From Verrucomicrobiota bacterium (lineage in GTDB: Bacteria > Verrucomicrobiota > Verrucomicrobiia > Opitutales > Seribacteraceae), in contig JAQBYT010000017.1 of NCBI GenBank assembly GCA_027622665.1, positions 1-64,000 of the forward strand: 64,000 nucleotides of DNA, read 5' to 3'. How positions within the stretch are numbered: position 1 is the stretch's first letter; each line of letters starts with the position of its first letter. This document shows, one piece after another, positions 7,436-20,965 of the stretch. A program made the translations under genes and the position numbers. Under the pieces are notes generated by a model. It ran no database searches, was not told the origin of the DNA, and was given only the letters and a program-made list of their open reading frames with translations.

Positions 7436-10400
7436 TCAAGGGTTACTTGTTTCGAAATAAGCGTAGATTATGAGGTTGCCACTTGTTGTTACGTGGATGT
7501 TTACGGAAGTTCCCGTAGCATCGCCAAACCAGCGCTTGAATACATAGCCCTCGGCCGGCGTAGCTTCAATCTCCGTGGTCGTTCCTTCTTCGTAGACACC
7601 CCCGCCGATTATTGATCCGGCGTTAGATGGGTAGGATACCACCGTTACTTCATAAGTGGTAGCTATTTTCTGCCAAGAGGAAGTCGAGTAGTCGTAATAG
7701 GCAAAGGTGCCATCGGGGATTCGTGAGAAGTAGTTCCATTCGTAGTTGTCTTGACTCCAGACATTGGGATAAGCGTCTTTATTCGTCCATTGCCAACCAA
7801 AGCGCTGGGTCCAAAACCACATGGAAGAATCGTTTTCGGGTTTGGTGTAAATCCAGCCGAAATCGAAATGGTATGCCCATTCGGGTGTTGTTTGATGAAA
7901 ATACCCGAACCATGAGCTTTCTTGCCATCCCGCCTCTAGCTCTGTTGCATCGAGAGCGTAGAAGAGGGTGGCTGCATCGGCATGTCGTTCGAAATTAGCT
8001 ACGAGACTGAGATCTCCGAAAACAGTGAAACTCTGGTCGGATGAGTTTGTGTCGGCCAAGTTTGCCCCTGACCAATGGGAGAATTCATATCCCTTGATCG
8101 GAGTCGAGACCAAGGACACAGTGTCTCCATGTTGATATGTGCCTCCACCCGATACGGTGGCTGCGCCAACAGGAGATACGGAAATATTTACATTATACTG
8201 TAACTTCTCGAACTCAGCCGTAAGGTTGGCGGAGCCAGCGATAGTGACTGTGGTGGCACTATCGTTGGCTTCGACAGGATTACCCCCGACCCACCCGATG
8301 AACTGATAGCCCACGGAGGGAAGAGCGGTAATGTTTACACTGCTTCCGAGGTTGTAACTCCCGCTTCCAACCACTGTTCCCCCGACGCTGGGTTCTACCG
8401 TCAGGTTGAGTGGGTAGGTGAGGTTCTCGAAGTTGGCGGTGACATTAAGGTCGGAGGTTAACGATATAGTGGTGGAGGATGAGATCGCGTCGGCTATTCC
8501 AATTCCGCTCCAGTTTGTGAAAACGAAGCCGGATGAAGCTATAGCGGTGACATTGACATCTGCCCCGTAAGGGTATGTTCCGGATCCGGTTAGTGTTCCT
8601 GCTCCTTCCATGTTGCTGAAAAGGAGGAGGCTGTGACTGGATTCCGCAAAGTTGGCGGTGATGGTCTGGGAGGCAGTTATCGTGACGGATGTGCCGACGG
8701 CAGTAGGGTCAGCTAGATTTTCTCCTGTCCATCCGACAAAACGATACCCTTCGGCTGGATTTGCGAAAATATTAACTGTTTGGCCATATTCATAGTTGCC
8801 GCCGCCGATTACGGAGCCACCGCCACTTGCGTCGACCACGACGGCGAGGGCGTAGGAACCAAGCTCGAAATTGGCGATGACGCTTCGGTCATCGGTCATG
8901 GAAATAGTAGTCTGAAAAGAGGTCGACCCAATTGTGCCGGAACCACTCCAGTGGGAGAAAATATAGGCTGGGTCGGGAGTCGCGGTGATGCTTGGAGTGG
9001 AACCGTAGGCGAAGGTCCCGCCGGCTGAAACGCTACCGCCTGTTCCTGCGTTCACCGTGAGAAGGTGTTGATTCAACGAGAAATTGGCCCGAAGAACATA
9101 GCTGCCGTTGGCATCGACTGTTGTTGTGTCGGCATTGGTGTCGGAGATGAAACCCGTGGAGTCTACCACCTTGATGAGGTTGCCCATTCCGGAATGGTTG
9201 TCGCAATGGTAGTAGAGGGTGTTGGGTGTTTCGGCATCTACGGTGATGGCGACAGTTCCGTTTGTGGCTTCAGAACCCGTTACTCCGTTAGTGTGTTTAC
9301 CCAGGTTTATGTTTCCGCCACCGCCCGAATCCTCACTGAAATAGAAGGGGTGACTGGCGGTGGTGGAACCATCAAGGACGAATTGGTAGACGTTTCCTCT
9401 GACAAGGGTGAGTGGGGGACTCTCCTTGCCGTTCAGAAAGAAGGCGTTGGCCGTGGTGTCGTATTGTCGGGCGGCGACAGTGACTGTGTAATCCATGGTT
9501 CCGTTGACCTCCCATCCGGTAAAGCTATAGCCTATTTCGGGACTGGCCCTAATGGGAACGAGTTGACCATAGGAGTAGTTGCCGTCGCCGGAAACGGAAC
9601 CGCCCGTGGATGAGACGAGGTCGAGGGCGTTTATCAAGGGATCGAAGTGGGCGGTTACATTGGCGTCGGATCCTTGGTCGAGCGTTACGGTGACGGATGT
9701 CATTGAGAGTGGGGAGGCGAGGGTGCCTCCAGTTGTCGTCCATCCCAAGAAATGATACCCTGGTGCTGAGCTGGCAGAAATGTTGACAACGGCATTCTGG
9801 TCATAGGGTCCACTTCCGCTAGTTGTTCCAGAACCAATTGGCTCGGCGTAAGTTTGGAGTATTTTTTTGCCAAGAGGAGTTAAGGCAAAGTTGGCCGTTA
9901 CGTTTCGGTCCTGCGTCATCGTGGCGGTGGTGGTTGGCGAGCTTCCGTCTGCTGCTCCTTCTCCGCTCCAATTCGTGAAGTAATGACCATCATGAGGAGA
10001 CGCAGTAATGGGAGCGTTCGCACCATAGCTGAAGTTTCCACCTCCAGTTGCAGTGCCGCCGGACGCGGTAGAAACGGATAGACTGTGGATAATGGTCTCG
10101 AAGTTGGCCGTTACGTTTCGGTCCTGTGTCATGTCCACAGTGGTGGTGTAAGCGTTTAGATCGGTGATACCTTCGCCGACCCATTCTGTAAATGAGTAGC
10201 CTGTTTGCGGGGTAGCTGTAATGGTAGACTGGCTTCCATGGTCGTGGATTCCGGATAGGGATACGGTTCCTCCTGCGCTTGCGTTCGTCGACAGAGCGTA
10301 GGATTTGATTGCGAAGGTAGCGGTTACGTTTCGGTCCTGCGTCATGGCGACAGTTGTGCTTAAGGCATCCGCATCGTTCACTCCGGATCCAGTCCATCCG

Positions 10401-13400
10401 GCGAATACGTAACCTGCGTTTACGGTAGCCACGATGGGAGCGGAAGAATTCCAATCGAAGGTTCCTGAACTGGTGGCGGCACCCCCGCTTTCATTCGAGA
10501 CGATTAGGACGTGACGATCGATGGCGAAGATGGCAGTGGCGTTTCTATCTTGAGTCATGTCCACCGTAGTGGCGGAAGCGTTTACGTCGGCGATGCCTCC
10601 GCCAACCCATCCGGCAAAGGAATAACCCGTTTGCGGTGTGGCGATAATGGAGGCTTGAGTCCCATGGTTATGAGATCCTGAGCCAGATATGTTTCCGCCG
10701 GACCCGGAGCTTATTGTGAGGAAGTAAGAATTGATGAGGAAGGTTGCCGTGACGTTTCTATCCTGAGTCATGAGCACGATCGTGTTTGCTTCGCTGGAGT
10801 TGCCGATACCTGAGCCCGTCCATGCCGAAAACTCATAACCGATAGAAGGTGTCGCCGTTATTGGGATGGAAGAGTTCCAGTCGTATACCCCAGCGCCTGA
10901 CGTGCTTCCTCCGGTTCCTGAGCTGACACCAAGCTCGTACTGATTGATGGCGAAAACCGCAGATGCGTTGCGGTCTTGCGTCATGTCTATCGTCGTGGTG
11001 GTAGCGTTTACGTCGGCGATACCTGAGCCCACCCACCCTGCGAAGGTGTAGCCCGTTTGTGGTGTGGCGGTAATGGTGACCTGGGTTCCGTGCTCGTGAC
11101 TGCCGGAGCTGGATACGTTTCCGCCAGAGGCGGGAGTTGTGGTCAGGGTGTATGAATTGATGAGGAAGGTAGCCGTGACGTTTCTATCCTGAGTCATGAG
11201 CACGGTTGTGTTGAAGGCGGAGGGGTTGGTTATACCGGTTCCGACCCAGCCCGTGAAGGAATAGCCGGTGTTTGGTGTTGCCGTTATTGGCGCGGCAGAA
11301 TTCCAGTCGAAGGTGCCTGCTCCGGATACGGAACCGCCGACTCCCCCGGATGCTGTCAGCGTGTGTTGATTGATGGTAAACGTTGCCGTTACGTTTCTAT
11401 CCTGTGTTATGAGCACGGTTGTGTTGGAGGCATTCAGGTCGGCGATTCCATCGCCCGTCCAACCCGTGAAGGAATAGCCCGTGTCAGAGGTTGCTGTGAT
11501 TCCGACTACAGTCCCGTAATTAAATACGCCTGCTCCTGATATGCTTCCACCCGTACCGCCTGTTGAGTTTAGGGTGTAGGAGTTTAATGTGAAGTGTGCC
11601 GTAACGGATCTATGTTGAGTGGCAGCTAGAGTAATGATGCCGTTCGTTTCGTTGGAATCCCCGGACCAATTGGAGAAGGTGTATCCGGTTGAGGCGGTGG
11701 CGGTGAGTGTGGCGGTGGCCCCTTGGTTGTGAACCCCTGCTCCGGCAATTGTGCCGGATCCGGCCGGAGAGGCGTTGGCGTCGATCTGGTAGGAAGGCCA
11801 GCGACCGGTTCCATGATTGTCTCGGCGAAATTTCGGCCAGTCCGAGTCGGCTAGGTTCCAACCTGCCTTGACGGCGTACAACTTCTTGTCGAATGATCCG
11901 AAGTACAGGGTGCCGTTGGCGTCGATGGTAAGGGAGGAGTCAACCACGTCGCCGATGACGACTGAATGATTGGTCATGCTGCTGTTCCAGTCCATGGAGC
12001 CATTCGCATCAATCGCGAAAATATGGTTTTCGCCGCCACCCAGATACCCGACTACGTAAACCGTCCCGTTCTCGTCTACAACAGGAGAACTGTAGAACAC
12101 GTCGCCAATCGGCTTTTCCCAGTTGGTCACTCCGAAATCAATGTCGATCGAGCGCAGGTAGCCATCTCGCGACATGAAGAACACTTCATTCGACAAACCA
12201 ATCACAGGCGAGGAGTCGACTCTATCGGCAGTTGCGTATTTCCATCGCAGGACACCGTTGGTGCCGTTGTCTTCCAATGAATAGCAGTAGCCGTTGGAGC
12301 TTCCGAAGTATATGTTGCCGTAGAGGTCGAGGGCAGGGGAGGACTCTATGGAACTGTTGGATTCTGTTACAGTGTCCACGACATAAATCCATTTGGCGCT
12401 GCCATCGGGATTAACCGCATGGAAAGTACCATTGTCGTCTCCGAAATAGATGGTGCCGTCTTGACCCAGGGCGGCGGAAGAGGAGATCGGTTGCTCGGCA
12501 AAATACTCCCACTTCTTGGAGCCATTGGATTCCAGGGCATAGAAAAAGTTATCGCGCGATCCGATATAGATCGTTCCATCGGGTCCCACGGCCGGTCCCG
12601 CCAAAACCAAACTGTCCGTGGAGAAAGTCCATTTGCCAGTGCCGTCGGGATTGATTGCGTGTAGCTTGTTGTCCCAAGACCCTACGTATATCGTTCCGTC
12701 ATCCGCGATAGACGGAGTTGAATCTACCCACTCTCCCGCTTGATAAGTCCACTTTACACCACCGTCCGGATAAAATGCGTAAAGGTTATTATCGCCCGAA
12801 CCAACGTATATCGTGCCGTCCGAGCCGATGGTCGGAGATGAATAGATGGCACCTCGAGTCGGTTGGCTCCAGACAAGGTCTTGCACCTGTGGAATGTTTT
12901 GGGAAGAGCTAGAGTTCATGTCCACGGTCAAGGTGTAGACGGAATCTCCTTGGTTTGTTCCGTTTGAGTTCGCTACCAGTCCGGAGGCATAGAAAGTGAC
13001 CATGCCCACGTCGGAGGCAGGTGCCGTCCACTTGAACGTCCACTGCCCGGTAGTGGAAGGGGTGTTGTGCTCGGCGTATCCTCCGTCAATCGTCATTCCT
13101 GAAGATGCCGCAGTCAAACTTCCGGCATTATCATTTCCTGACTTTGCGATGGCTTGAAAGCCATACCCACTGGCATTTTTATCCAGTAATAGGCTCAGTT
13201 CGTAAGTGCGGTTCGGCGTGTAAAAGGAGGGAAGGCCTATTATCGTAAAGTTGCTGTCCCCAGTGTTTGCTGTGCCGGTGTGACATGAAGTGCAATTCAG
13301 CGAGCTCGGAGGATCACGGGCTGGGCTTGTAGGAGGGTTGGCTTGATTCCCCCACGCGAAGCTAGGCGAAAGGATAGCAGCAACTGTAAATAGATATCTT

Positions 13401-13408
13401 GAAATCAT
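7436..13408 (-). CDS. Large secreted/surface protein: CxxCH + Reeler-like domain, PQQ-like propeller, 17 InlB B-type repeats, nested cupredoxin-like domain, aromatic-rich C-terminal domain
   Basis: Signal peptide; CTSCH; WTFKWTAP; SSP-x-G-DGTIYVGS repeats; about 72-aa GY-F-GW...VTANF repeats; HPF...YHCDNHSGMG; WQESSWFGYF...FGWIY. Confidence 0.9.
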   Translation of the reverse strand: MISRYLFTVAAILSPSFAWGNQANPPTSPARDPPSSLNCTSCHTGTANTGDSNFTIIGLPSFYTPNRTYELSLLLDKNASGYGFQAIAKSGNDNAGSLTAASSGMTIDGGYAEHNTPSTTGQWTFKWTAPASDVGMVTFYASGLVANSNGTNQGDSVYTLTVDMNSSSSQNIPQVQDLVWSQPTRGAIYSSPTIGSDGTIYVGSGDNNLYAFYPDGGVKWTYQAGEWVDSTPSIADDGTIYVGSWDNKLHAINPDGTGKWTFSTDSLVLAGPAVGPDGTIYIGSRDNFFYALESNGSKKWEYFAEQPISSSAALGQDGTIYFGDDNGTFHAVNPDGSAKWIYVVDTVTESNSSIESSPALDLYGNIYFGSSNGYCYSLEDNGTNGVLRWKYATADRVDSSPVIGLSNEVFFMSRDGYLRSIDIDFGVTNWEKPIGDVFYSSPVVDENGTVYVVGYLGGGENHIFAIDANGSMDWNSSMTNHSVVIGDVVDSSLTIDANGTLYFGSFDKKLYAVKAGWNLADSDWPKFRRDNHGTGRWPSYQIDANASPAGSGTIAGAGVHNQGATATLTATASTGYTFSNWSGDSNETNGIITLAATQHRSVTAHFTLNSYTLNSTGGTGGSISGAGVFNYGTVVGITATSDTGYSFTGWTGDGIADLNASNTTVLITQDRNVTATFTINQHTLTASGGVGGSVSGAGTFDWNSAAPITATPNTGYSFTGWVGTGITNPSAFNTTVLMTQDRNVTATFLINSYTLTTTPASGGNVSSSGSHEHGTQVTITATPQTGYTFAGWVGSGIADVNATTTTIDMTQDRNASAVFAINQYELGVSSGTGGSTSGAGVYDWNSSIPITATPSIGYEFSAWTGSGIGNSSEANTIVLMTQDRNVTATFLINSYFLTISSGSGGNISGSGSHNHGTQASIIATPQTGYSFAGWVGGGIADVNASATTVDMTQDRNATAIFAIDRHVLIVSNESGGAATSSGTFDWNSSAPIVATVNAGYVFAGWTGSGVNDADALSTTVAMTQDRNVTATFAIKSYALSTNASAGGTVSLSGIHDHGSQSTITATPQTGYSFTEWVGEGITDLNAYTTTVDMTQDRNVTANFETIIHSLSVSTASGGTATGGGNFSYGANAPITASPHDGHYFTNWSGEGAADGSSPTTTATMTQDRNVTANFALTPLGKKILQTYAEPIGSGTTSGSGPYDQNAVVNISASSAPGYHFLGWTTTGGTLASPLSMTSVTVTLDQGSDANVTAHFDPLINALDLVSSTGGSVSGDGNYSYGQLVPIRASPEIGYSFTGWEVNGTMDYTVTVAARQYDTTANAFFLNGKESPPLTLVRGNVYQFVLDGSTTASHPFYFSEDSGGGGNINLGKHTNGVTGSEATNGTVAITVDAETPNTLYYHCDNHSGMGNLIKVVDSTGFISDTNADTTTVDANGSYVLRANFSLNQHLLTVNAGTGGSVSAGGTFAYGSTPSITATPDPAYIFSHWSGSGTIGSTSFQTTISMTDDRSVIANFELGSYALAVVVDASGGGSVIGGGNYEYGQTVNIFANPAEGYRFVGWTGENLADPTAVGTSVTITASQTITANFAESSHSLLLFSNMEGAGTLTGSGTYPYGADVNVTAIASSGFVFTNWSGIGIADAISSSTTISLTSDLNVTANFENLTYPLNLTVEPSVGGTVVGSGSYNLGSSVNITALPSVGYQFIGWVGGNPVEANDSATTVTIAGSANLTAEFEKLQYNVNISVSPVGAATVSGGGTYQHGDTVSLVSTPIKGYEFSHWSGANLADTNSSDQSFTVFGDLSLVANFERHADAATLFYALDATELEAGWQESSWFGYFHQTTPEWAYHFDFGWIYTKPENDSSMWFWTQRFGWQWTNKDAYPNVWSQDNYEWNYFSRIPDGTFAYYDYSTSSWQKIATTYEVTVVSYPSNAGSIIGGGVYEEGTTTEIEATPAEGYVFKRWFGDATGTSVNIHVTTSGNLIIYAYFETSNP

Positions 13409-13548: not shown

Positions 13549-14916
13549 CTAATTGCTTTTTGAGATTTCGATCCTCACGAGGAAACACGAACCTTCCGAA
13601 CCGGAAGATTCGAGCGAAACCTCGGCATCTATACGTTGGGCCAGTTCGCGGCAGATGGCGAGCCCCACGCCACTTCCACCGGGTTTGGAGCTTTGGACCG
13701 GTCGGAACAGTCGCTCGCGGATCTGTTCGGCTACGCCTTCACCATCATCCCTTACGCGAAATTCCAAGTTTTCCTCCTCTTGCTTTGCCTCCAGTGTTAC
13801 CACGCCCTTATTTGACGCCTCGATGGCGTTCTGCCCCAGATTCAGCAGGATGGGGAGCAGCAGATTGGCTCGCAGGTTGTCCAATTCGATTTCGGAGGCA
13901 ACATTTTCGATTGTCAGTTTCACATTAGCCTTTTCGGCGGCGGGGACGAGTCGTTGGCGAGCCAACTCGAGGATTTCGGTCAGGCTGAACGAATAGGTGG
14001 CCTCGTCGGCTTCGGCCTCTCTCAAGGTGCCGAGCGTTTCCTGGATGATGGCTTGCATGCGGTCGGTGGCTTCGGTCAAGAGACGTCCCTCTTCTCCACC
14101 ATCTCCTTCCTCTCGTTGTTCACGGGCATAGTCTCGTAGACCCGCCAAGGGATTCTTCAAGGCGTGCATCAAGTGTGAGGTTACGGCTCCTACGCCGGCG
14201 GCCTTGCAGGCTTGGGACAAGCGTTGATTAGACTCCACCAGTTTTTTCGTTCTTTCGGCCAAGGCTTCTTGGGAACGCCTCAGGCGTCGTAGAAAAGATA
14301 TGAAGACGACCAATATGAGACCGCCGCCACCCGTGAAGGCGATCAAGCCTTGGCGAATCAGTTTTCCGTCGAGGGCCTTGCGTTCGGCAGCCAGAGGATC
14401 ACCTTCCATTTGTAATAAGATGAAGCCGGATTCAGGATCCTCCCCCAACCGATGAAGAATGGAAAGTTCGGCGGGCTTTCGGAACTGGACCAGTGGTGTG
14501 TTGCGGGCGGTCTCGAAGTCGCCTGCGGTAGGAAAAACTTCATCTTCGCTTGCACTGAAGGAGGCGAGAGCATCTCCCTCGTCATCGAATGATATCGCTC
14601 CCTTGACTTCGGGGATTTCTAATGCTCGCAAGGTAGTTTCCTCGAAGACCTCCTCGGTGTCGTGAAGAAGTTCGTTCATTCCGAGCTCGATGTAGTCCAA
14701 ATCCCGAGCTAGGGCATCGTCCTCCACCATATTGAATACTTCCTCAATGAGAGGAGTTGTGGATCCGGCAATGCGAGCGAGGGCTTCCGTACGCAATTGT
14801 TCGCGCAGGTCGTACAGCAAAACAGCAAGCATTACCCCGTAGGTGACGAGTATTATGGCGAGAGTTCTTCGCGAACCCAAGAAGCCTATTTTGTCATCTT
14901 TGCTTGATTTGGCCAT
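13549..14916 (-). CDS. Membrane sensor histidine kinase
   Basis: Two TM helices around a periplasmic domain; HLMHALKNPL H-box, NLGQNA, DDGEG, GSGVGL. Confidence 0.93.
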   Translation of the reverse strand: MAKSSKDDKIGFLGSRRTLAIILVTYGVMLAVLLYDLREQLRTEALARIAGSTTPLIEEVFNMVEDDALARDLDYIELGMNELLHDTEEVFEETTLRALEIPEVKGAISFDDEGDALASFSASEDEVFPTAGDFETARNTPLVQFRKPAELSILHRLGEDPESGFILLQMEGDPLAAERKALDGKLIRQGLIAFTGGGGLILVVFISFLRRLRRSQEALAERTKKLVESNQRLSQACKAAGVGAVTSHLMHALKNPLAGLRDYAREQREEGDGGEEGRLLTEATDRMQAIIQETLGTLREAEADEATYSFSLTEILELARQRLVPAAEKANVKLTIENVASEIELDNLRANLLLPILLNLGQNAIEASNKGVVTLEAKQEEENLEFRVRDDGEGVAEQIRERLFRPVQSSKPGGSGVGLAICRELAQRIDAEVSLESSGSEGSCFLVRIEISKSN

Positions 14917-14931
14917 CTCCTCGAAACTCGC

Positions 14932-16104
14932 TCAGTTCGACCACTTGATCCCTGCGGAAAACATGGTCGCCTCGTATTCATAGCTGGGGTCGTTTGAATC
15001 GTCGCGTTCCTTTTTCCATTTGGCGAACAAGTTCCATTTCTCGTTGATTTTTCGGTCTGCCTCAAATTCCGCGGACAGCCCATTCCTTTGAAAAAGCTCT
15101 CCGGAGGTGGCCGGTCTGACGTCATATTCGGAATTCGATGCGTTGGCGCTTGCCGACAGTGTCCACGGGCCGATCTCTCGACTCACTTTCAAACTGCCGT
15201 TCAAGCTTTCGTAATCGTAATGGCCGTTGGCGTTGTCGGTGGTTTTGTTGAAGTATGTGGATAAGTTCACTTCCCAGTCATCTCCCTTCCCGAAGTTTCG
15301 GGTGCCTGATATTCCCGTTCCAACGGTCCGCGTCTCGGAGTCGATGGATGTTCCGTCGTTCTTGGAACCTTGTCGTTCGTCGTACTCTTTCCAGCGACTG
15401 TACATGGAAAAGTTCACGGAGGCATCCTTATCTCCTTTCCACTTCACAATCGATCGAAATTCCTTTTCGCGGTAGTTGTAGAGTTCGGGGTCACTTGCAT
15501 AAGCATCGCGGGCCGCCGATACTTCCAACCCTCCCGTAAGTCCATCGCCGATGGGGAAGGATACGAAAGGACGAATCTCGCTCTTGTTGGACTGGATGGG
15601 GTATCCGGTTTTAGGGTTATAAGGATCATCGAAGACCATGTCGTAGTAGGTATGCCGTAACCTGATTCCGCGTAAGTTCCCCGTCGTGGGCGATCTCAGC
15701 GAGTATTCCGCCTGGGCGAGGGCGATACCTGTCAAGTCGAGCGCCGGTATGTCTTGGTATCGGGATCCCTCTCCGAAGAGGTAAAGGTAGAATACGCTTC
15801 CGTTCTTTCCCATGCGGAGCAGGAAAGCATCGATGCTCGCGGTGGCGAAACCACCTTCCTGTACGTTCGGTCCGGGACTTTGAAGAGGGTTTTTGCCATG
15901 CCCCCCCCCGAAGGATAGGTTCAGGGTTTTCGACCATTGGGAAGCCTTCTTTTCGACGGTCTCTACGAGTCCTTTGCCAAAGAGTAGTTCCTCCAGCATC
16001 TCATCCGTGAAGTTTCCGTCCCCTTGACCATGAAGAAGGGTTTCGGGAATAGAGAGCCCGAAGGATATGACGATGGGCGCAAGGGCAGCTGATATCGAAC
16101 GCAT
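14932..16104 (-). CDS. Putative outer-membrane beta-barrel protein
   Basis: Signal peptide, alternating amphipathic strands rich in Y/F/W, terminal FSAGIKW. Confidence 0.75.
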   Translation of the reverse strand: MRSISAALAPIVISFGLSIPETLLHGQGDGNFTDEMLEELLFGKGLVETVEKKASQWSKTLNLSFGGGHGKNPLQSPGPNVQEGGFATASIDAFLLRMGKNGSVFYLYLFGEGSRYQDIPALDLTGIALAQAEYSLRSPTTGNLRGIRLRHTYYDMVFDDPYNPKTGYPIQSNKSEIRPFVSFPIGDGLTGGLEVSAARDAYASDPELYNYREKEFRSIVKWKGDKDASVNFSMYSRWKEYDERQGSKNDGTSIDSETRTVGTGISGTRNFGKGDDWEVNLSTYFNKTTDNANGHYDYESLNGSLKVSREIGPWTLSASANASNSEYDVRPATSGELFQRNGLSAEFEADRKINEKWNLFAKWKKERDDSNDPSYEYEATMFSAGIKWSN

Positions 16105-16161
16105 ATTCAAACATTTATCCTCTCATGGTTGGAGGAAATTGGAAAGATGAATCCATCAGGC

Positions 16162-16227
16162 AAAAGGGAGAGGAACCGAAGTCCGTCTCCCTGTCTTGCC
16201 GGTGGCGTGGTCGGCAAATTCCCCTCG
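16162..16227 (-). terminator. Copy 2 of a 66-nt double-hairpin element ending in an intrinsic terminator (cUUCGg loop)
   Basis: RNA GGGAGACGGAC-UUCG-GUUCCUCUCCC-UUUU preceded by UUGCCG...CGGCAA hairpin. Confidence 0.75.
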
Positions 16228-16238
16228 TTCAAAAACAT

Positions 16239-16316
16239 TTATAACGATGTCTTTTTCTGGGATGGCCTTATCGTTTCATAACGAAAATTGGATGCCATGG
16301 CTTGAAGCTTTTTCAT
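16239..16316 (-). CDS. Candidate 25-aa small ORF MKKLQAMASNFRYETIRPSQKKTSL
   Basis: ATG..TAA open frame lying between the two element copies. Confidence 0.3.
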   Translation of the reverse strand: MKKLQAMASNFRYETIRPSQKKTSL

Positions 16317-16344
16317 TTGGGTGAGGACGGATAGCCAAGACCCG

Positions 16345-16412
16345 AAAAAAGGGAGGCGGACATAAGTCCGCCTCCCGATCTGGCCGGTCGCGTGGCCGGC
16401 AAATTCCCCTCG
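16345..16412 (-). terminator. Copy 1 of the double-hairpin element; perfect 11-bp terminator stem plus U6
   Basis: RNA GGGAGGCGGAC-UUAU-GUCCGCCUCCC-UUUUUU just after the stop at 16422. Confidence 0.9.
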
Positions 16413-16421
16413 CGAAATCGT

Positions 16422-17912
16422 TTAGCGGGAAGTGCGACTGGAACCTTCTTCCTTGGTGTTCCTCACTTCTTTGCGCAATTCCTTTTGGGCTACCTTCAAT
16501 TCTTCGTGCTTCTCTTTTTGAGCAACCCGAAACTCATCGAGAGCAGCTTTTCTAGCGACTGCTTGCTCGGCAATGAGTCTTTTGATGTTTGCGGCAACTT
16601 CATCCTTGTCGGCGCTTTCTTTTAACTCCGCGATCTTGGCGGCAAGTTCGTCATGAGCCTCTTTCAATTTGTCGTTAACTGCCTTTCTCGCAACATGCAA
16701 AGTCTTCTCGACGGCCTTTACATCATCGATCTTTGCCTTTACGGCAGCGGGATGTTCGGGACGTTCCTTGCGCTCGGGCCGATTTGCCTCTAGCTCTTCA
16801 TGCACTTTGTCGGCGGCCTTCTTGATGGCTGCAAACTTGTCGGCGTTCTCTTTCTTGAACTCCTCGACTGCCTTGCGGACATCTGCCTTGCTCGAATCGT
16901 TTTCAAGCTTTCCGAGCTCTTCCCTCATGGCCTTGAAAAGGTCTGCCTTCTCTGTCTCGATTTTTGCGAGATTGTTTTTGGTCTCATGAGAAATCTCGGG
17001 GCGAGGAGGAGCCGGAGGAAGTACCACCGGAGGGCGTTTGGGTTCTGGCCTCGGCTTGTCCTTGTGGGCAAGGTCGGGCTTTTCGCCATGGTCGGGCTTT
17101 TCGGCATCAGGCTTTACGCCATGGTTGGGATTTTCGGCATCAGGCTTTACGGCATGGTTGGGATTTTCGGCATCGGGCTTTACGGCATGGTTGGGATTTT
17201 CGGCATCGGGCTTTTCGCCATGGTCGGGCTTTTCGGCATCGGGCTTCTCGCCATGGTTGGGCTTTTCGGCATCGGGCTTTACGGCATGGTCGGGCTTTTC
17301 GGCATCGGGCGTTACGGCATGGTCGGGCTTTTCGGCATCAGGCTTTACGGCATGGTCGGGCTTTACGGCATCGGGCTTTACGGCATGGTCGGGATTTTCG
17401 GCATCAGGCTTTACGGCATGGTTGGGATTTTCGGCATCGGGCTTTACGGCATGGTTGGGATTTTCGGCATCAGGCTTCTCGCCATGGTCGGGATTTTCGG
17501 CATCAGGCTTTACGGCATCGGGCTTTTCGCCATGGTCGGGCTTTTCGGCATCAGGCTTCTCGCCATGGTTGGGAAATATGATCTTGTAGACTTCCTCGTC
17601 GCTTCGGTCTTTCCCGGTGCTTTCATCAAATCTAGGGGAACCGCCCGTGAACACCAATCCGGAAGGGATCTTCTTACCTTCATGAATCCATTGCTCAAAA
17701 GTGAGAGGAGCAGGTGGGAGGGGGTGGATAAGAGGTCCGCCGACTTCAGGTTTTGGTTGTTCACCGCCGTGTTGAACGGTTCCATGAGCCGGTTTGACAT
17801 TCGGGTTCGCGTCTGGAGCGAATCCCCCTCCGATAGGTGCTTGATCTTGGGCAAAAGTCATTGAGCCAAGGCTCATCGCTATTGCCACTAACATGTATGT
17901 TGTATTTTTCAT
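16422..17912 (-). CDS. Secreted protein with His/Pro/Asp tandem repeats and a charged helical C-terminal domain
   Basis: Signal peptide [23 protein letters not shown](G/A)(E/V)KPDAE(K/N)P(D/N) repeats; C-terminus homologous to 17953-18759. Confidence 0.85.
17073..17570. repeat. Coding 33-bp tandem repeat, 14 full units plus a partial one (one unit carries an extra 15 bp)
   Basis: Unit such as ggctttacggcatggttgggattttcggcatc(a/g), repeated contiguously. Confidence 0.95.
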
Positions 17913-17952
17913 TTTCTTTAGGTGTTTGATTAGTTTTAAAAGTGTTGGGTTA

Positions 17953-18759
17953 TTATTCGGAGGTCCGAGTTGCACCTGTTTCCTTTGCTGCCCGGACGGC
18001 ATCCTTGAGTTCCTTGTGAGCCGCTTTCAATTCCTCGTGTTTGTCTTTGTTGTCGACCTTGAACTTTTCGATCAGGATCTTACGGTCTTCCTTGGTGGCA
18101 TCCTTGAGTTCCTTCCTTAAGTTACCTCTGGACTCATGGAGTTTTTTGCCTACTGCCTTTACTACAGCAATCTTGGCGTTGATTTCGGGAGTGGGTTCCG
18201 GGCGTTCCTTGCGATCTGGTCGGGCTGCGTTCAGGGTTTCGTGAACCTTTTCGGAAGCTGCCTTGATGGCGTCGAAGCGATCTTGGTTTGCTTTCTTGAA
18301 GGCCTCGACCGCGGCTCTTACGTCATCTTTAGACGAATCCTTGCCAAGCCCAAGCTTTTCGAGTTCTTCTCCAATTGCCGCTTTCAGGGCATCCTTGTCA
18401 CCCTTTATTGCATCCAGTTGGGCCTTCACCTCGTCGGAGAGTACCAGCTTTACGGGCCGCTGGATCAGTGGTCGCTTTGAGTCGGTTGGAGACTTTTTCC
18501 CTTTGCCTAAATCCCTTTTGTTTCCAGTTGGCTTCTTGTCGGCCCCTGACTTGGTCAAGGCATTCCACTTGGCTCGCGCCTCGTCCTCGGTGAGCTTTCC
18601 GGCGGCAATTGCCTCTTTAAGGCTTTTCCCAAACGCTTCGAGTTTGCCTGCATCAGGTGCTTTACGAGCTAAGGCAGGTGCTTTACGGTCTTGAGAAAAA
18701 GCCATCGAACTCATTGTTAGAATTCCTGTGGCGATGATAAGGATGAATGTTTTTTTCAT
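17953..18759 (-). CDS. Secreted Lys/Glu-rich helical protein, paralog of the downstream gene
   Basis: Signal peptide ending AFSQD; shared motifs DSSK.DVR.AVE.FKK.N, KVHE.L.A.RP.RKERPE, KHEELK.A.KEL, G..RTS. Confidence 0.88.
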   Translation of the reverse strand: MKKTFILIIATGILTMSSMAFSQDRKAPALARKAPDAGKLEAFGKSLKEAIAAGKLTEDEARAKWNALTKSGADKKPTGNKRDLGKGKKSPTDSKRPLIQRPVKLVLSDEVKAQLDAIKGDKDALKAAIGEELEKLGLGKDSSKDDVRAAVEAFKKANQDRFDAIKAASEKVHETLNAARPDRKERPEPTPEINAKIAVVKAVGKKLHESRGNLRKELKDATKEDRKILIEKFKVDNKDKHEELKAAHKELKDAVRAAKETGATRTSE

Positions 18760-18800
18760 GAATACTTTGGATTGGAATTAATAAATTACCCAATAGCCTT

Positions 18801-18816
18801 TGCATTGTTTATGCCA
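18801..18816 (-). promoter_or_regulatory. sigma-54 -24/-12 promoter TGGCATAAACAATGCA
   Basis: GG-N10-GC spacing exact; about 40 nt upstream of ATG 18759; NtrC-family gene adjacent. Confidence 0.85.
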
Positions 18817-18903
18817 CTTCCTTGTGTTTACCTAATGCATTGTTGTATAGGTATATAAAGTCTTTAAATGCCTTCTTCACCTTAAGGCGTTTTCTCTGTT
18901 TTT

Positions 18904-18947
18904 GGGGAATATTTCCCAGCGAACGGGGGGGGCGGGGACTATTCCCC
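18904..18947. promoter_or_regulatory. Two palindromic upstream activator sites, GGGGAATATTTCCC and GGGGACTATTCCCC, 30 bp apart
   Basis: Seen at 18904-18917 and 18934-18947, about 90-130 bp upstream of the sigma-54 box. Confidence 0.7.
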
Positions 18948-18952
18948 AACCT

Positions 18953-20374
18953 CTACTCGTCTTTTTTTTGCAACCTGTAGCGTAAGTAGTCTCTGGGGAC
19001 GCCGAGAAGGCGAGCGGCTTCCGAAACGTTTCCGGATGACTGATCGATTCCCATTTCGATCAGTCGCAGGATGGCGTTTTCCAAGTCAAAGCCTTCCGAG
19101 GGAAAACGAAAGGCAGTGTTCAGCCAATCGTTGGAATCCGTCTTTTGTGAATCCGATGCGTCGGATTCATCAGTCGGGAGCAGGTTAAAGCTAAGCTCTT
19201 TGCCTTTGTCGTGCATAACCAAGGAGCGCTCGAGCTCATGGGTGAGTTCCCGGGCGTTTCCGGGCCACGAATGATGCAATAGTTGCTTTTCCCCGTTGGC
19301 GGAGAACTCGGGCATTGGCAAGTTGTACTTGCTTGACAGAGAACTTAGGAAATGTCGGGCCAAGAGCAGGATCCCTTCTTCTCGTTGAGCGAGAGGAGGT
19401 ATTTTCATCCTCAAGAGGTCCAGTCGATGATAGAGGTCTTCCCGAAAGGCGCCGCCCTTGATCATTTCCCTCAAGTCTTGGTTGGCGGCGGTGATTACGC
19501 GAACGTCGACTTGAATTTCTTTGTTTCCACCCAGCCTGCGAATCTTTCCGTTCTCGATCGCCACCAGCACTTTTGCTTGGGCCGCAGTCGATAGGCTGGC
19601 GATCTCGTCTAGGAAGAGGGTGCCGTGGTCAGCTGCCTCGAAGAGCCCGATGCGAGCTCCCTTGGCATCGGTGAAAGCGCCTTTTTCATGACCGAAGAGC
19701 TCGGACTCGGCCAGATTGTCGGGAATGGCGGAGCAATTCACCTCTACCCAAGGACCATCAGCGCGGGGACCGTTTTCGTGAATCCAACGAGCGTAGGTTG
19801 ATTTTCCCGATCCAGTGGGACCCTCGATCAAAACAGGCGGGAGGTTGCTTGCCAGTCGGTTGTCGGCATCGAGTATTTTCTCGAGCATGACTAAATCCTT
19901 GGAGAAGGTTCCGTCGAAGAACAGATCCTCACTCTTTCTTTTTGCTTCCGTGCGGTCGTGTTCGCTGATTCGTTTTTTGCGGCGATGAGCATCGGCGTGG
20001 GAGAAAACCAGGGGCAGTTCCTCGAGATCGAAAGGCTTGGCCAAGTAGTCCGATGCGCCGAGGCGAAGAGCTTCCACGGCGGAACGCACTCCGCCTTCCC
20101 CGGTCATCAGCACTACTAGGGTGTTTTCCGGAACCGCATGTTCCTTGAGCAGGTCTAGGCTTTCACCGTCGGGGAGGTTCAAGTCGAATAAAGCGCAGTC
20201 GAAAGAGAGTGTCTTGAGGGACTGTCGAGCTTCCTCTATGCTTCCTGTATGGGTCACTTCGGCTCCCATCCTCTCTAGTAAGGCAGTGATCCTTTTGGTC
20301 AAGAGGATCTCGTCTTCAAGCAGAAGAACCTCCTTGTCGTGAAAGAAATTCGAGTGATTCCCGTGGTCGGTCAT
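18953..20374 (-). CDS. Sigma-54-dependent response regulator (NtrC/Fis family)
   Basis: Receiver (LLLEDE, FDLNLPD, LAKP), Walker A GPTGSGKS, ESELFGHEKGAFTDA, LFLDEI, Fis HTH GNVSEAARLLG. Confidence 0.96.
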   Translation of the reverse strand: MTDHGNHSNFFHDKEVLLLEDEILLTKRITALLERMGAEVTHTGSIEEARQSLKTLSFDCALFDLNLPDGESLDLLKEHAVPENTLVVLMTGEGGVRSAVEALRLGASDYLAKPFDLEELPLVFSHADAHRRKKRISEHDRTEAKRKSEDLFFDGTFSKDLVMLEKILDADNRLASNLPPVLIEGPTGSGKSTYARWIHENGPRADGPWVEVNCSAIPDNLAESELFGHEKGAFTDAKGARIGLFEAADHGTLFLDEIASLSTAAQAKVLVAIENGKIRRLGGNKEIQVDVRVITAANQDLREMIKGGAFREDLYHRLDLLRMKIPPLAQREEGILLLARHFLSSLSSKYNLPMPEFSANGEKQLLHHSWPGNARELTHELERSLVMHDKGKELSFNLLPTDESDASDSQKTDSNDWLNTAFRFPSEGFDLENAILRLIEMGIDQSSGNVSEAARLLGVPRDYLRYRLQKKDE

Positions 20375-20521
20375 TGCGACAATCCTTTACACGAAGCACG
20401 CTTGGGAGAAAGACTATTTTTTCATATGTGAGTTCGGGGCTGCAGTATATCCTGTTTGAGATAGTTTCCAATTTCTTGGCTTTGGCTTGACGGATAGGTG
20501 TTGTGGAGAAAGCTTTCTTGT

Positions 20522-20965
20522 ATGCCTAAACCCGAACCTGAAAAACTTTCAGCTGAGGAAGCTCGAGTCGAGGCTCTACGCGTAGTGGCGGAGGACCGTT
20601 TCCCATACCTCGCCACCTTGGATTCCGATCAACCTCGGTTGCGTCCCGTTTCGCCCGTAAGAACGGACGGTTTCACTGTGTATGTCGCCAACCTGAGAAG
20701 CTACGGCAAGACCGCCGAAATTGAGGCCAACCCGAAAGTGGAGCTTTGTTACTTGGACAAGGGGCACGATCAAGTGCGAGTCACGGCCATTGCGGAGGTG
20801 TTGAAGGAGCGCCGGACATTGGAGTCGATATGGAATGAGAATCCGCTTCTTCGACAGTACCTCGGCAGCGTGGACAATCCCGAATTAATCGTCTACAGGA
20901 TGGTGCCGAATCGCGTGCGTTTCATGCGGGAATGGGCCTTGGAATACCACGAAGTGGCCATTTGA
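20522..20965 (+). CDS. Pyridoxamine 5'-phosphate oxidase-like FMN-binding split-barrel protein
   Basis: YLATLDSDQPRLRPV, KTAEIEANPKVELCY. Confidence 0.8.
   Translation: MPKPEPEKLSAEEARVEALRVVAEDRFPYLATLDSDQPRLRPVSPVRTDGFTVYVANLRSYGKTAEIEANPKVELCYLDKGHDQVRVTAIAEVLKERRTLESIWNENPLLRQYLGSVDNPELIVYRMVPNRVRFMREWALEYHEVAI

Follow-up and report, generated by a model that had tools for sequence, protein, structure and literature searches.

Genes at the locus

A 64,000-nt window from a Verrucomicrobiota bacterium (assembly GCA_027622665.1, contig JAQBYT010000017.1, positions 1 to 64,000) was analysed. It contains a locus of six co-oriented minus-strand genes, in the order activator, helical protein T1, helical protein T2, outer-membrane barrel, histidine kinase and propeller protein. 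A sequence-only reading of the window had described five co-oriented genes, a GG-N10-GC promoter and twin palindromes in front of the T1 gene, and all of these are present. The five genes are real, but a sixth member had been missed. It codes for a secreted protein with a PQQ-type propeller and is located after the kinase gene (7436-13408, minus strand). As a propeller gene is found in most barrel loci (see below), we count it as part of the cassette.

The activator gene (18953..20374, minus strand) codes for an NtrC-type sigma-54 activator of 473 amino acids (aa). Its receiver (PF00072), its AAA+ domain for sigma-54 interaction (PF00158) and its Fis-type helix-turn-helix (PF02954) all match over the Pfam cut-offs, and the receiver aspartate, Walker A and the GAFTDA loop are seen in the sequence. 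In line with this type, the DNA shows a -24/-12 promoter and, about 100 bp upstream of it, tandem sites. The protein stayed below the cut-offs of the ZraR, NtrC, AtoC and PrsR models in a profile scan.

The kinase (13549..14916, minus strand) spans the membrane with two segments, and its periplasmic domain, about 150 aa long, is acidic. HATPase_c matches over and HisKA below the cut-off; the histidine of the H-box is kept in at least 90% of the alignment rows. In each of the 33 sequences counted this sensor domain is acidic; it gave 0 matches in Pfam families and PDB sequences. From the known chemistry of the NtrC family, phosphotransfer from the kinase to the activator, and activation, are likely.

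For the outer-membrane beta-barrel (14932..16104, minus strand) 16 strands and an acidic N-terminal helix are predicted (AlphaFold pLDDT 83.1, pTM 0.76). The best matches of the model among known folds are porins and CdiB (Z 20-21.7, rmsd 3.3-4.0, 261-301 aligned, 7-10% identity). The family is large, comprising 480 clusters (50% identity) at E<=1e-30, and every returned name was "hypothetical protein"; a PDB sequence search gave 0 matches. BBP2 and SlipAM are the nearest named clusters by language-model features. At E<=0.1 profile matches were obtained to DUF481 (5/26 members), TIGR03016 (3/26), BBP2_2 (2/26) and SlipAM (1/26), and the barrel of the window itself matches DUF481 over the cut-off on 93 residues only. 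Neither a TPR match nor a POTRA domain was found, and MipA is not among the 8 Pfam families matched by the 26 members. The barrel is likely to be distantly related to BBP2/SlipAM-type barrels, and the model predicts a pore that belongs to no named family. Its most conserved residues cluster in the loops after odd strands, which is the outer face if the N-terminus is periplasmic.

The propeller protein (7436..13408, minus strand; 1990 aa) was assigned by Pfam and synteny. It consists of a Reeler domain, the PQQ-type beta-propeller (~11786-12880), 17 InlB B-repeats and a C-terminal domain that other proteins of the genome have too. It is probably displayed at the cell surface on its repeat stalk. 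The shared aromatic-rich domain of ~105 aa (residues 1815-1919, window ~7650-7970) recurs in 30 open reading frames (ORFs) of the genome, the propeller gene and 29 others, lies within 120 aa of the ORF end in 22 of the 30 and has no Pfam match. By its occurrence it is a candidate lineage-specific sorting or anchoring domain; the propeller tails differ in other families.

The helical proteins

T1 (17953..18759, minus strand; 268 aa) comprises a signal peptide, judged by eye, a variable N-terminal part, two tandem helical hairpins and an Arg-containing C-terminal tail (AlphaFold pLDDT 92.8, pTM 0.64). No Pfam family scored over the cut-off. T2 (16422..17912, minus strand; 496 aa) was taken to start at the ATG at 17912, where the signal peptide begins; the mechanical ORF begins at 18002. 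The two had been called paralogous, and they share 42-45% identity across the C-terminal domain. T2 contains a 33-bp His/Pro/Asp repeat (~17040-17570) and 26 His in all. A PspC match on T2 (60.5 vs cut-off 500) was discarded as an artefact of this repeat.

Two tandem helical hairpins are predicted for the T core; the T proteins of the family f23 have a single hairpin unit (~120-165 aa). The N-terminal parts vary freely and are mosaics of short swappable modules. The last six residues of the tail are identical in 34 of 75 homologues, and the tail varies between families.

Two further observations concern the N-terminal modules. A short one of T2 (window region 17571-17702) is found again at an unrelated locus of the genome, G000:C55:190426-190659, with 47% identity across 81 aa, and T homologues from other genera carry it as well. 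A secreted protein at G000:C49:56193-56963 (L065:8193-8963) shares the N-terminal helical repeat of T1 alone, and its C-terminal half is rich in Asp, Glu and His.

The sequence-only reading had proposed that the targets are Spy/ZraP-like chaperones or metal buffers. Neither Pfam nor hhalign gave a sequence link to Spy, CpxP or ZraP. Fold searches with the T model returned generic hairpins, the best of them at Z 9.4, rmsd 3.1 and 75 aligned for the monomer, the Spy/CpxP fold being a cradle-shaped dimer; Spy, CpxP and ZraP are not among the matches listed. A search of the ESM Atlas reached a top score of 0.79, which we regard as a lead only. A role as metal buffer found little support as well. 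The median His content across 75 T homologues is 1.7%, and Cys is rare outside the family f62. Three same-genus relatives have a T2 that lacks the His repeat, which is confined to T2 of this genome among the homologues examined.

Conservation of the cassette

We compared 64 barrel loci from at least 10 families; most come from one family, and the counts of loci are not counts of independent events. The order activator-T-barrel-kinase-propeller is the commonest (31 loci, or 40 if those with an extra T are included), and the barrel gene is directly followed by the kinase gene in 62 of the 64. A propeller is present in 56 of the 58 untruncated loci. It is of the PQQ type in 52 of the 64, of another type and placed after T in four (family f62), and missing in two; six loci are cut by the contig end. 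In locus L245 the order is activator-T-T-propeller-barrel-kinase, with the propeller before barrel and kinase. In f62 (4 genomes) the barrel gene is placed between activator and kinase, abutting the activator stop upstream of the sigma-54 promoter.

Barrel, kinase, helical domain and activator thus co-occur across families of the Verrucomicrobiota, and this synteny supports the earlier proposal of a two-component circuit that drives secreted helical proteins from an enhancer and a sigma-54 promoter of its own. The cassette is real and conserved, and it is undescribed in the literature searched: a sigma-54 envelope circuit made from unnamed parts. No description of it was seen in the open literature searched, including part of PMC12316311, whose promoter tables could list its genes.

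Two features named earlier hold in part. Two helical targets are present here, but two T copies in tandem directly before the barrel occur in four of the 64 loci and most have a single copy; the second paralogue is, by this comparison, lineage-specific. The module was also called self-contained. It has its own enhancer, promoter and kinase, but besides the overlooked propeller gene the activator is non-adjacent in several relatives, and an activator of 50-64% identity is encoded elsewhere in 8 of 9 such genomes.

T1 matches were found in 32 of 61 relatives, and in 28 of 36 within the family. A profile search for the barrel in 401 sampled genomes of the phylum gave matches in 23, of which 17 are strong (E<=1e-12) and six are weak C-terminal ones; the cassette was absent from the five neighbourhoods inspected among these six.

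Some loci deserve mention on their own. The f62 loci L127, L128, L130 and L132 are rearranged, with an altered palindrome centre, a barrel without acidic helix and the other propeller type, and their T proteins carry 5-7 Cys plus an extra C-terminal helical stretch. At L125:4790-7700 the activator gene is truncated and unrelated ORFs lie between activator and barrel; an insertion apparently disrupts the cassette. A pyridoxamine-phosphate-oxidase-like gene (window 20498-20965, plus strand) is divergent from the activator gene and still stands beside T in L048, L050 and L055, where the activator has moved away.

Enhancer palindromes and sigma-54 promoter

Two predicted activator-binding palindromes, a distal one at 18933..18948 and a proximal one at 18903..18918, lie upstream of the T1 gene. 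They form a conserved pair with the consensus TGGG(A/G)AATATT(T/C)CCCA, and the pair is unique in the genome. The proximal site is situated ~102 bp before the -24 element of a sigma-54 -24/-12 promoter (18801..18816, minus strand), which has GG at 18815/18814 and GC at 18803/18802, is conserved before helical genes and predicts a start near 18790. No exact IHF consensus was found in the spacer of the window.

When the intergenic region was shuffled, 0 of 2000 sequences reached the score of the pair and 0 of 2000 yielded the promoter motif; the matrix had been trained on related loci, this locus included. Across the genome (4.5 Mb) the score of the pair is 46.2 and the next-best score 18.3, so the predicted regulon consists of one promoter. 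The RpoN-box motif occurs a single time in the genome, and none of six single palindromes inspected elsewhere has a partner site and a promoter.

In the relatives, the pair precedes 53 of 68 T ORFs and a promoter follows 89-104 bp downstream in 48. The distance from proximal palindrome to promoter is 98-104 bp in 39 of these 48 promoters and 89-94 bp in nine; the palindromes are spaced 30-33 bp apart in 44 of the 53 pairs. With the same matrix no pair was detected in front of any of the 61 barrels or 62 kinases. Among the 20 T regions without the full motif are the four f62 loci, where a different palindrome, GGG-N8-CCC, was recognised by eye, and four T copies that are second in tandem. The palindrome-plus-promoter pattern was detected in 31 of 76 genomes of the family, and its reversed control in 2. 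Where the second site is strong, the gene behind the match is T or, in a few genomes, one for a secreted EF-hand protein. Pair and promoter stand before such genes at L114:3831-4382 and L204:1500-2020, which possibly represent one genome, and in L240 (minus strand, beside an N gap); more distantly, an EF-hand-like esterase gene at L214:1500-3012 starts ~200 nt after the promoter.

The -12 dinucleotide of the 48 related promoters is GC in 24, GA in 15, GT in five and GG in four, and the non-GC variants were seen, by eye, mainly in the marine family.

Transcription units

A hairpin followed by a predicted intrinsic terminator (16347..16412, minus strand; 11-bp stem with a T run) marks the presumed end of the T transcript. 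A second copy, 83% identical, is found at 16162..16227 (minus strand), and the genome contains just these two full copies. Two tandem hairpin-terminator units therefore stand between T2 and the barrel; no terminator was found between T1 and T2. One script was applied to the 130 nt after the stops of all gene classes. Terminator-like hairpins follow 47 of 61 T genes and none of the 58 barrel genes; the counts for kinase, activator and propeller genes are 3 of 51, 2 of 45 and 2 of 36. From this arrangement the helical protein or proteins alone are predicted as the sigma-54 output, with barrel, kinase and propeller outside the switched-on unit. By inference, T is what the circuit induces, and those three genes make up a low-level unit. 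In a scan for sigma-70 promoters 3 sites were found vs 3.9 expected, and none could be assigned to barrel, kinase or propeller; read-through is therefore possible.

The duplicated element at 16162-16412 is a 66-nt double hairpin, and its first hairpin is conserved before the terminator in the closest relatives. By analogy with CpxQ from cpxP this hairpin could stabilise the 3' end or give a small RNA. Rfam gave two chance-level matches; the duplicated element was read as a terminator instead of a known RNA.

Parts of each of the six genes are covered, in one run or more, by RNA contigs of related strains (4 of the 21 runs listed). The T1-T2 junction is spanned by two contigs, one in run X1 (17571-18774) and one in run X2 (17531-18354). 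In X1 and X2 contigs stop at 18774 and 18771, leaving a gap of 16-19 nt to the predicted start; neither the start nor the level of a transcript can be read from contigs. The loose ends on these contigs are presumably adapter. None of this was counted as evidence.

Proposed mechanism and alternatives

We propose that a cue from outside or from the envelope reaches the kinase with help from the barrel and the propeller. The kinase would phosphorylate the sigma-54 activator, which would then bind the twin palindrome and turn on the helical protein or proteins only. Barrel and propeller would be made at a low steady level together with the kinase, and the barrel would transmit either a ligand or a change of conformation to the periplasm. 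The induced T would be a periplasmic holding protein, like Spy and CpxP by analogy only, and might damp the kinase. The parts of this proposal differ in strength. The wiring of the circuit on its own, as predicted from the sequence, is highly probable. An input role of the barrel, argued from operon logic, is rather probable, and by the same logic the propeller would be placed on the input side. Activity of T as a holding protein is suggested by analogy, and a chaperone-like function is possible on the same ground. Taken as a whole, with barrel- and propeller-aided sensing, activation of T alone, a holding function and possibly damping of the kinase, the proposal has in our estimate slightly less than an even chance of being right.

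Several observations weigh against it. No link between T and a known chaperone could be detected. A low expression of the barrel is compatible with catalytic export as well. The lumen of the barrel is charge-balanced (~19 basic and 21 acidic residues per sequence, by a crude alternation estimate), unlike the acidic MipA/OmpV channels, and the acidic N-terminal helix is missing from the f62 barrels. Two untruncated barrel loci have no propeller. L131 contains T and barrel without kinase, and the closest activator in its genome is just 36% identical; L247 has T and propeller with no barrel or kinase within 16 kb; in L244 T stands alone. Finally, the matrix for the palindromes was trained on T regions, and the count before T genes is circular, though the barrel and kinase controls are not. 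A three-chain complex prediction with the barrel, the periplasmic domain of the kinase and, as the partner, the T core gave scores of 0.00 and 0.18 vs a mark of 0.32; the case lies outside the calibration and is evidence neither way.

The sequence-only reading had left it between export and sensing via the barrel. As a dedicated secretion pore, Slam- or FapF-like, the barrel would export T to the surface by means of a signal in the conserved C-terminal tail. T does adjoin the barrel in most loci, the same six residues end 34 of the 75 homologues, BBP2 and SlipAM are the nearest named clusters, and among known folds the two-partner secretion pore CdiB matches best (Z 21.7, rmsd 4.0, 301 aligned). 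Porins, however, score within ~2 Z units of CdiB, and TPR and POTRA domains are lacking in the barrel; the tail varies from family to family, and in f62 the kinase lies between barrel and T. Since the barrel lies behind the terminator or outside the sigma-54 unit, we favour sensing and regard export as quite unlikely. In another alternative, a nutrient such as a glycan fragment would be captured and let in by propeller and barrel and then sensed by the kinase in the periplasm, T being a carrier or scaffold. The barrel shares its fold with 16-stranded porins, chitoporin among them (Z 20.2, rmsd 3.9, 273 aligned), its outer loops are conserved, and the propeller is the best-conserved exported part (55-66% within the family). 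Yet the enhancer pair precedes no catabolic gene or transporter in this genome and a charged hairpin made only of helices is not a fold that binds solutes, which makes uptake of this kind distinctly improbable.

A calcium or metal circuit would let the kinase sense an ion and induce periplasmic buffers, T and EF-hand proteins, as in CarSR or CorSR. The EF-hand genes behind the same enhancer-promoter in some relatives (L114/L204 and L240, more distantly L214), the 26 His of T2 and a DUF2202 gene preceding the activator in L128 are consistent with it, as are the propeller regulated by CarSR (PMC10574481, in part) and the PQQ_2 lipoprotein of the CorSR cluster (PMC3707914, in part). The low His and Cys contents of the homologues, the unconserved His repeat and the few genomes with EF-hand targets argue the other way, and no recurrent metal transporter or oxidase was seen among the neighbours inspected; we give this explanation little credence. 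T might instead be a structural spacer or tether in the periplasm, anchored on the barrel and tuned by the kinase to keep the geometry of the envelope. A charged rod of one hairpin (~120-165 aa, f23) or two with variable N-terminal extensions would suit that role, but T carries no lipid anchor or peptidoglycan-binding domain, and the cassette, found in 17 of 401 sampled phylum genomes, is therefore dispensable, so that a tether is very unlikely. More speculatively, the parts could form a TonB-independent surface signalling chain ending at sigma-54. The propeller would dock on the outer loops of the barrel, whose acidic N-terminal helix would be released to the periplasm and caught by the basic helical T; T would couple to the kinase and, as the sole output, close a feedback loop. 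We consider such a chain unlikely.

Returning to the preferred proposal of barrel-aided sensing with T as output, the genome holds no Spy, CpxP or ZraP family protein over the cut-off, and the cassette may therefore show the same envelope problem solved with unrelated parts. The Verrucomicrobiota are an abundant phylum of sea and soil, and the cassette may be their answer to this problem. The analysis defines three unnamed protein families, namely the helical target, the barrel and the sensor domain of the kinase. The readable activator site and the predicted one-promoter regulon offer a clean basis for a reporter, in which a promoter-marker fusion would bring the signal to light. Should the barrel indeed feed the kinase, it would join the few outer-membrane barrels proposed as co-sensors of two-component systems.

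Comparison with known systems

ZraPSR of E. coli and Salmonella combines a membrane kinase and a sigma-54 activator with a narrow regulon around a small periplasmic helical protein (PMC4987338, in part), and the wiring here is similar. The proteins are different: the kinase scores 86.7 vs the ZraS cut-off of 479 and the activator 252.3 vs the ZraR cut-off of 760. The genes are co-oriented and not divergent, barrel and propeller are added, and the sigma-54 promoter stands before T alone. PF13801 (ZraP/Metal_resist) gave seven sub-cut-off matches in the genome, none at the locus, and hhalign of the T profile against the single sequence of E. coli ZraP a probability of 0.5%.

The regulator CpxR is of the OmpR type; the cassette has a sigma-54 activator and a predicted regulon of one promoter. 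Otherwise the likeness to CpxPAR/Spy lies in a helical protein next to two-component genes and in an outer-membrane accessory. In that system a strongly induced periplasmic helical protein is encoded beside the two-component genes and NlpE provides an accessory outer-membrane input (PMC6737893, in part). PF07813 (LTXXQ) has no match at the locus, the LTXXQ motif occurs in four of 75 T homologues, and hhalign against single sequences gave 0.4% for Spy and 0.1% for CpxP.

PrsK/PrsR is likewise a sigma-54 pair beside exported proteins, but TIGR02916 scores 85.5 vs 300 and TIGR02915 280.8 vs 502.6, and no PEP-CTERM model matches T1 or T2. With CorSR and CarSR the cassette shares two-component genes linked to a secreted propeller: the CorSR-curA cluster of Myxococcus xanthus holds the PQQ_2 lipoprotein and CorR is a sigma-54 activator (PMC3707914), and CarSR (CarSR-CarO-CarP) regulates a propeller (PMC10574481). 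The locus differs from CorSR in that it contains no copper oxidase, ATPase or OB-fold gene and a propeller without lipobox; the curA genes listed in the part of PMC3707914 covered include no barrel. To BBP2/EpsL/TIGR03016 and Slam barrels the barrel is distantly similar by its weak matches to BBP2, SlipAM, DUF481 and TIGR03016, which a minority of members show.

Barrels have been proposed as co-sensors of a histidine kinase for MipA-MipB/ParRS of Pseudomonas aeruginosa (PMC10936184, in part) and, within the same operon, for carRS-ompV-virK of Vibrio cholerae (PMC12012098, in part). The barrel described here has no match to the MipA/OmpV family in Pfam scans, and by the crude charge count its lumen is not predicted to be acidic. 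In contrast to MipAB/ParRS, the predicted output is a helical protein instead of an efflux pump and is sigma-54 dependent. By these comparisons the cassette belongs to none of the named systems tested, in agreement with the sequence-only reading, which had recognised no named system of this composition. By analogy, its output side may work like ZraPSR and CpxPAR, and the proposed input side resembles MipAB/ParRS and carRS-ompV-virK.

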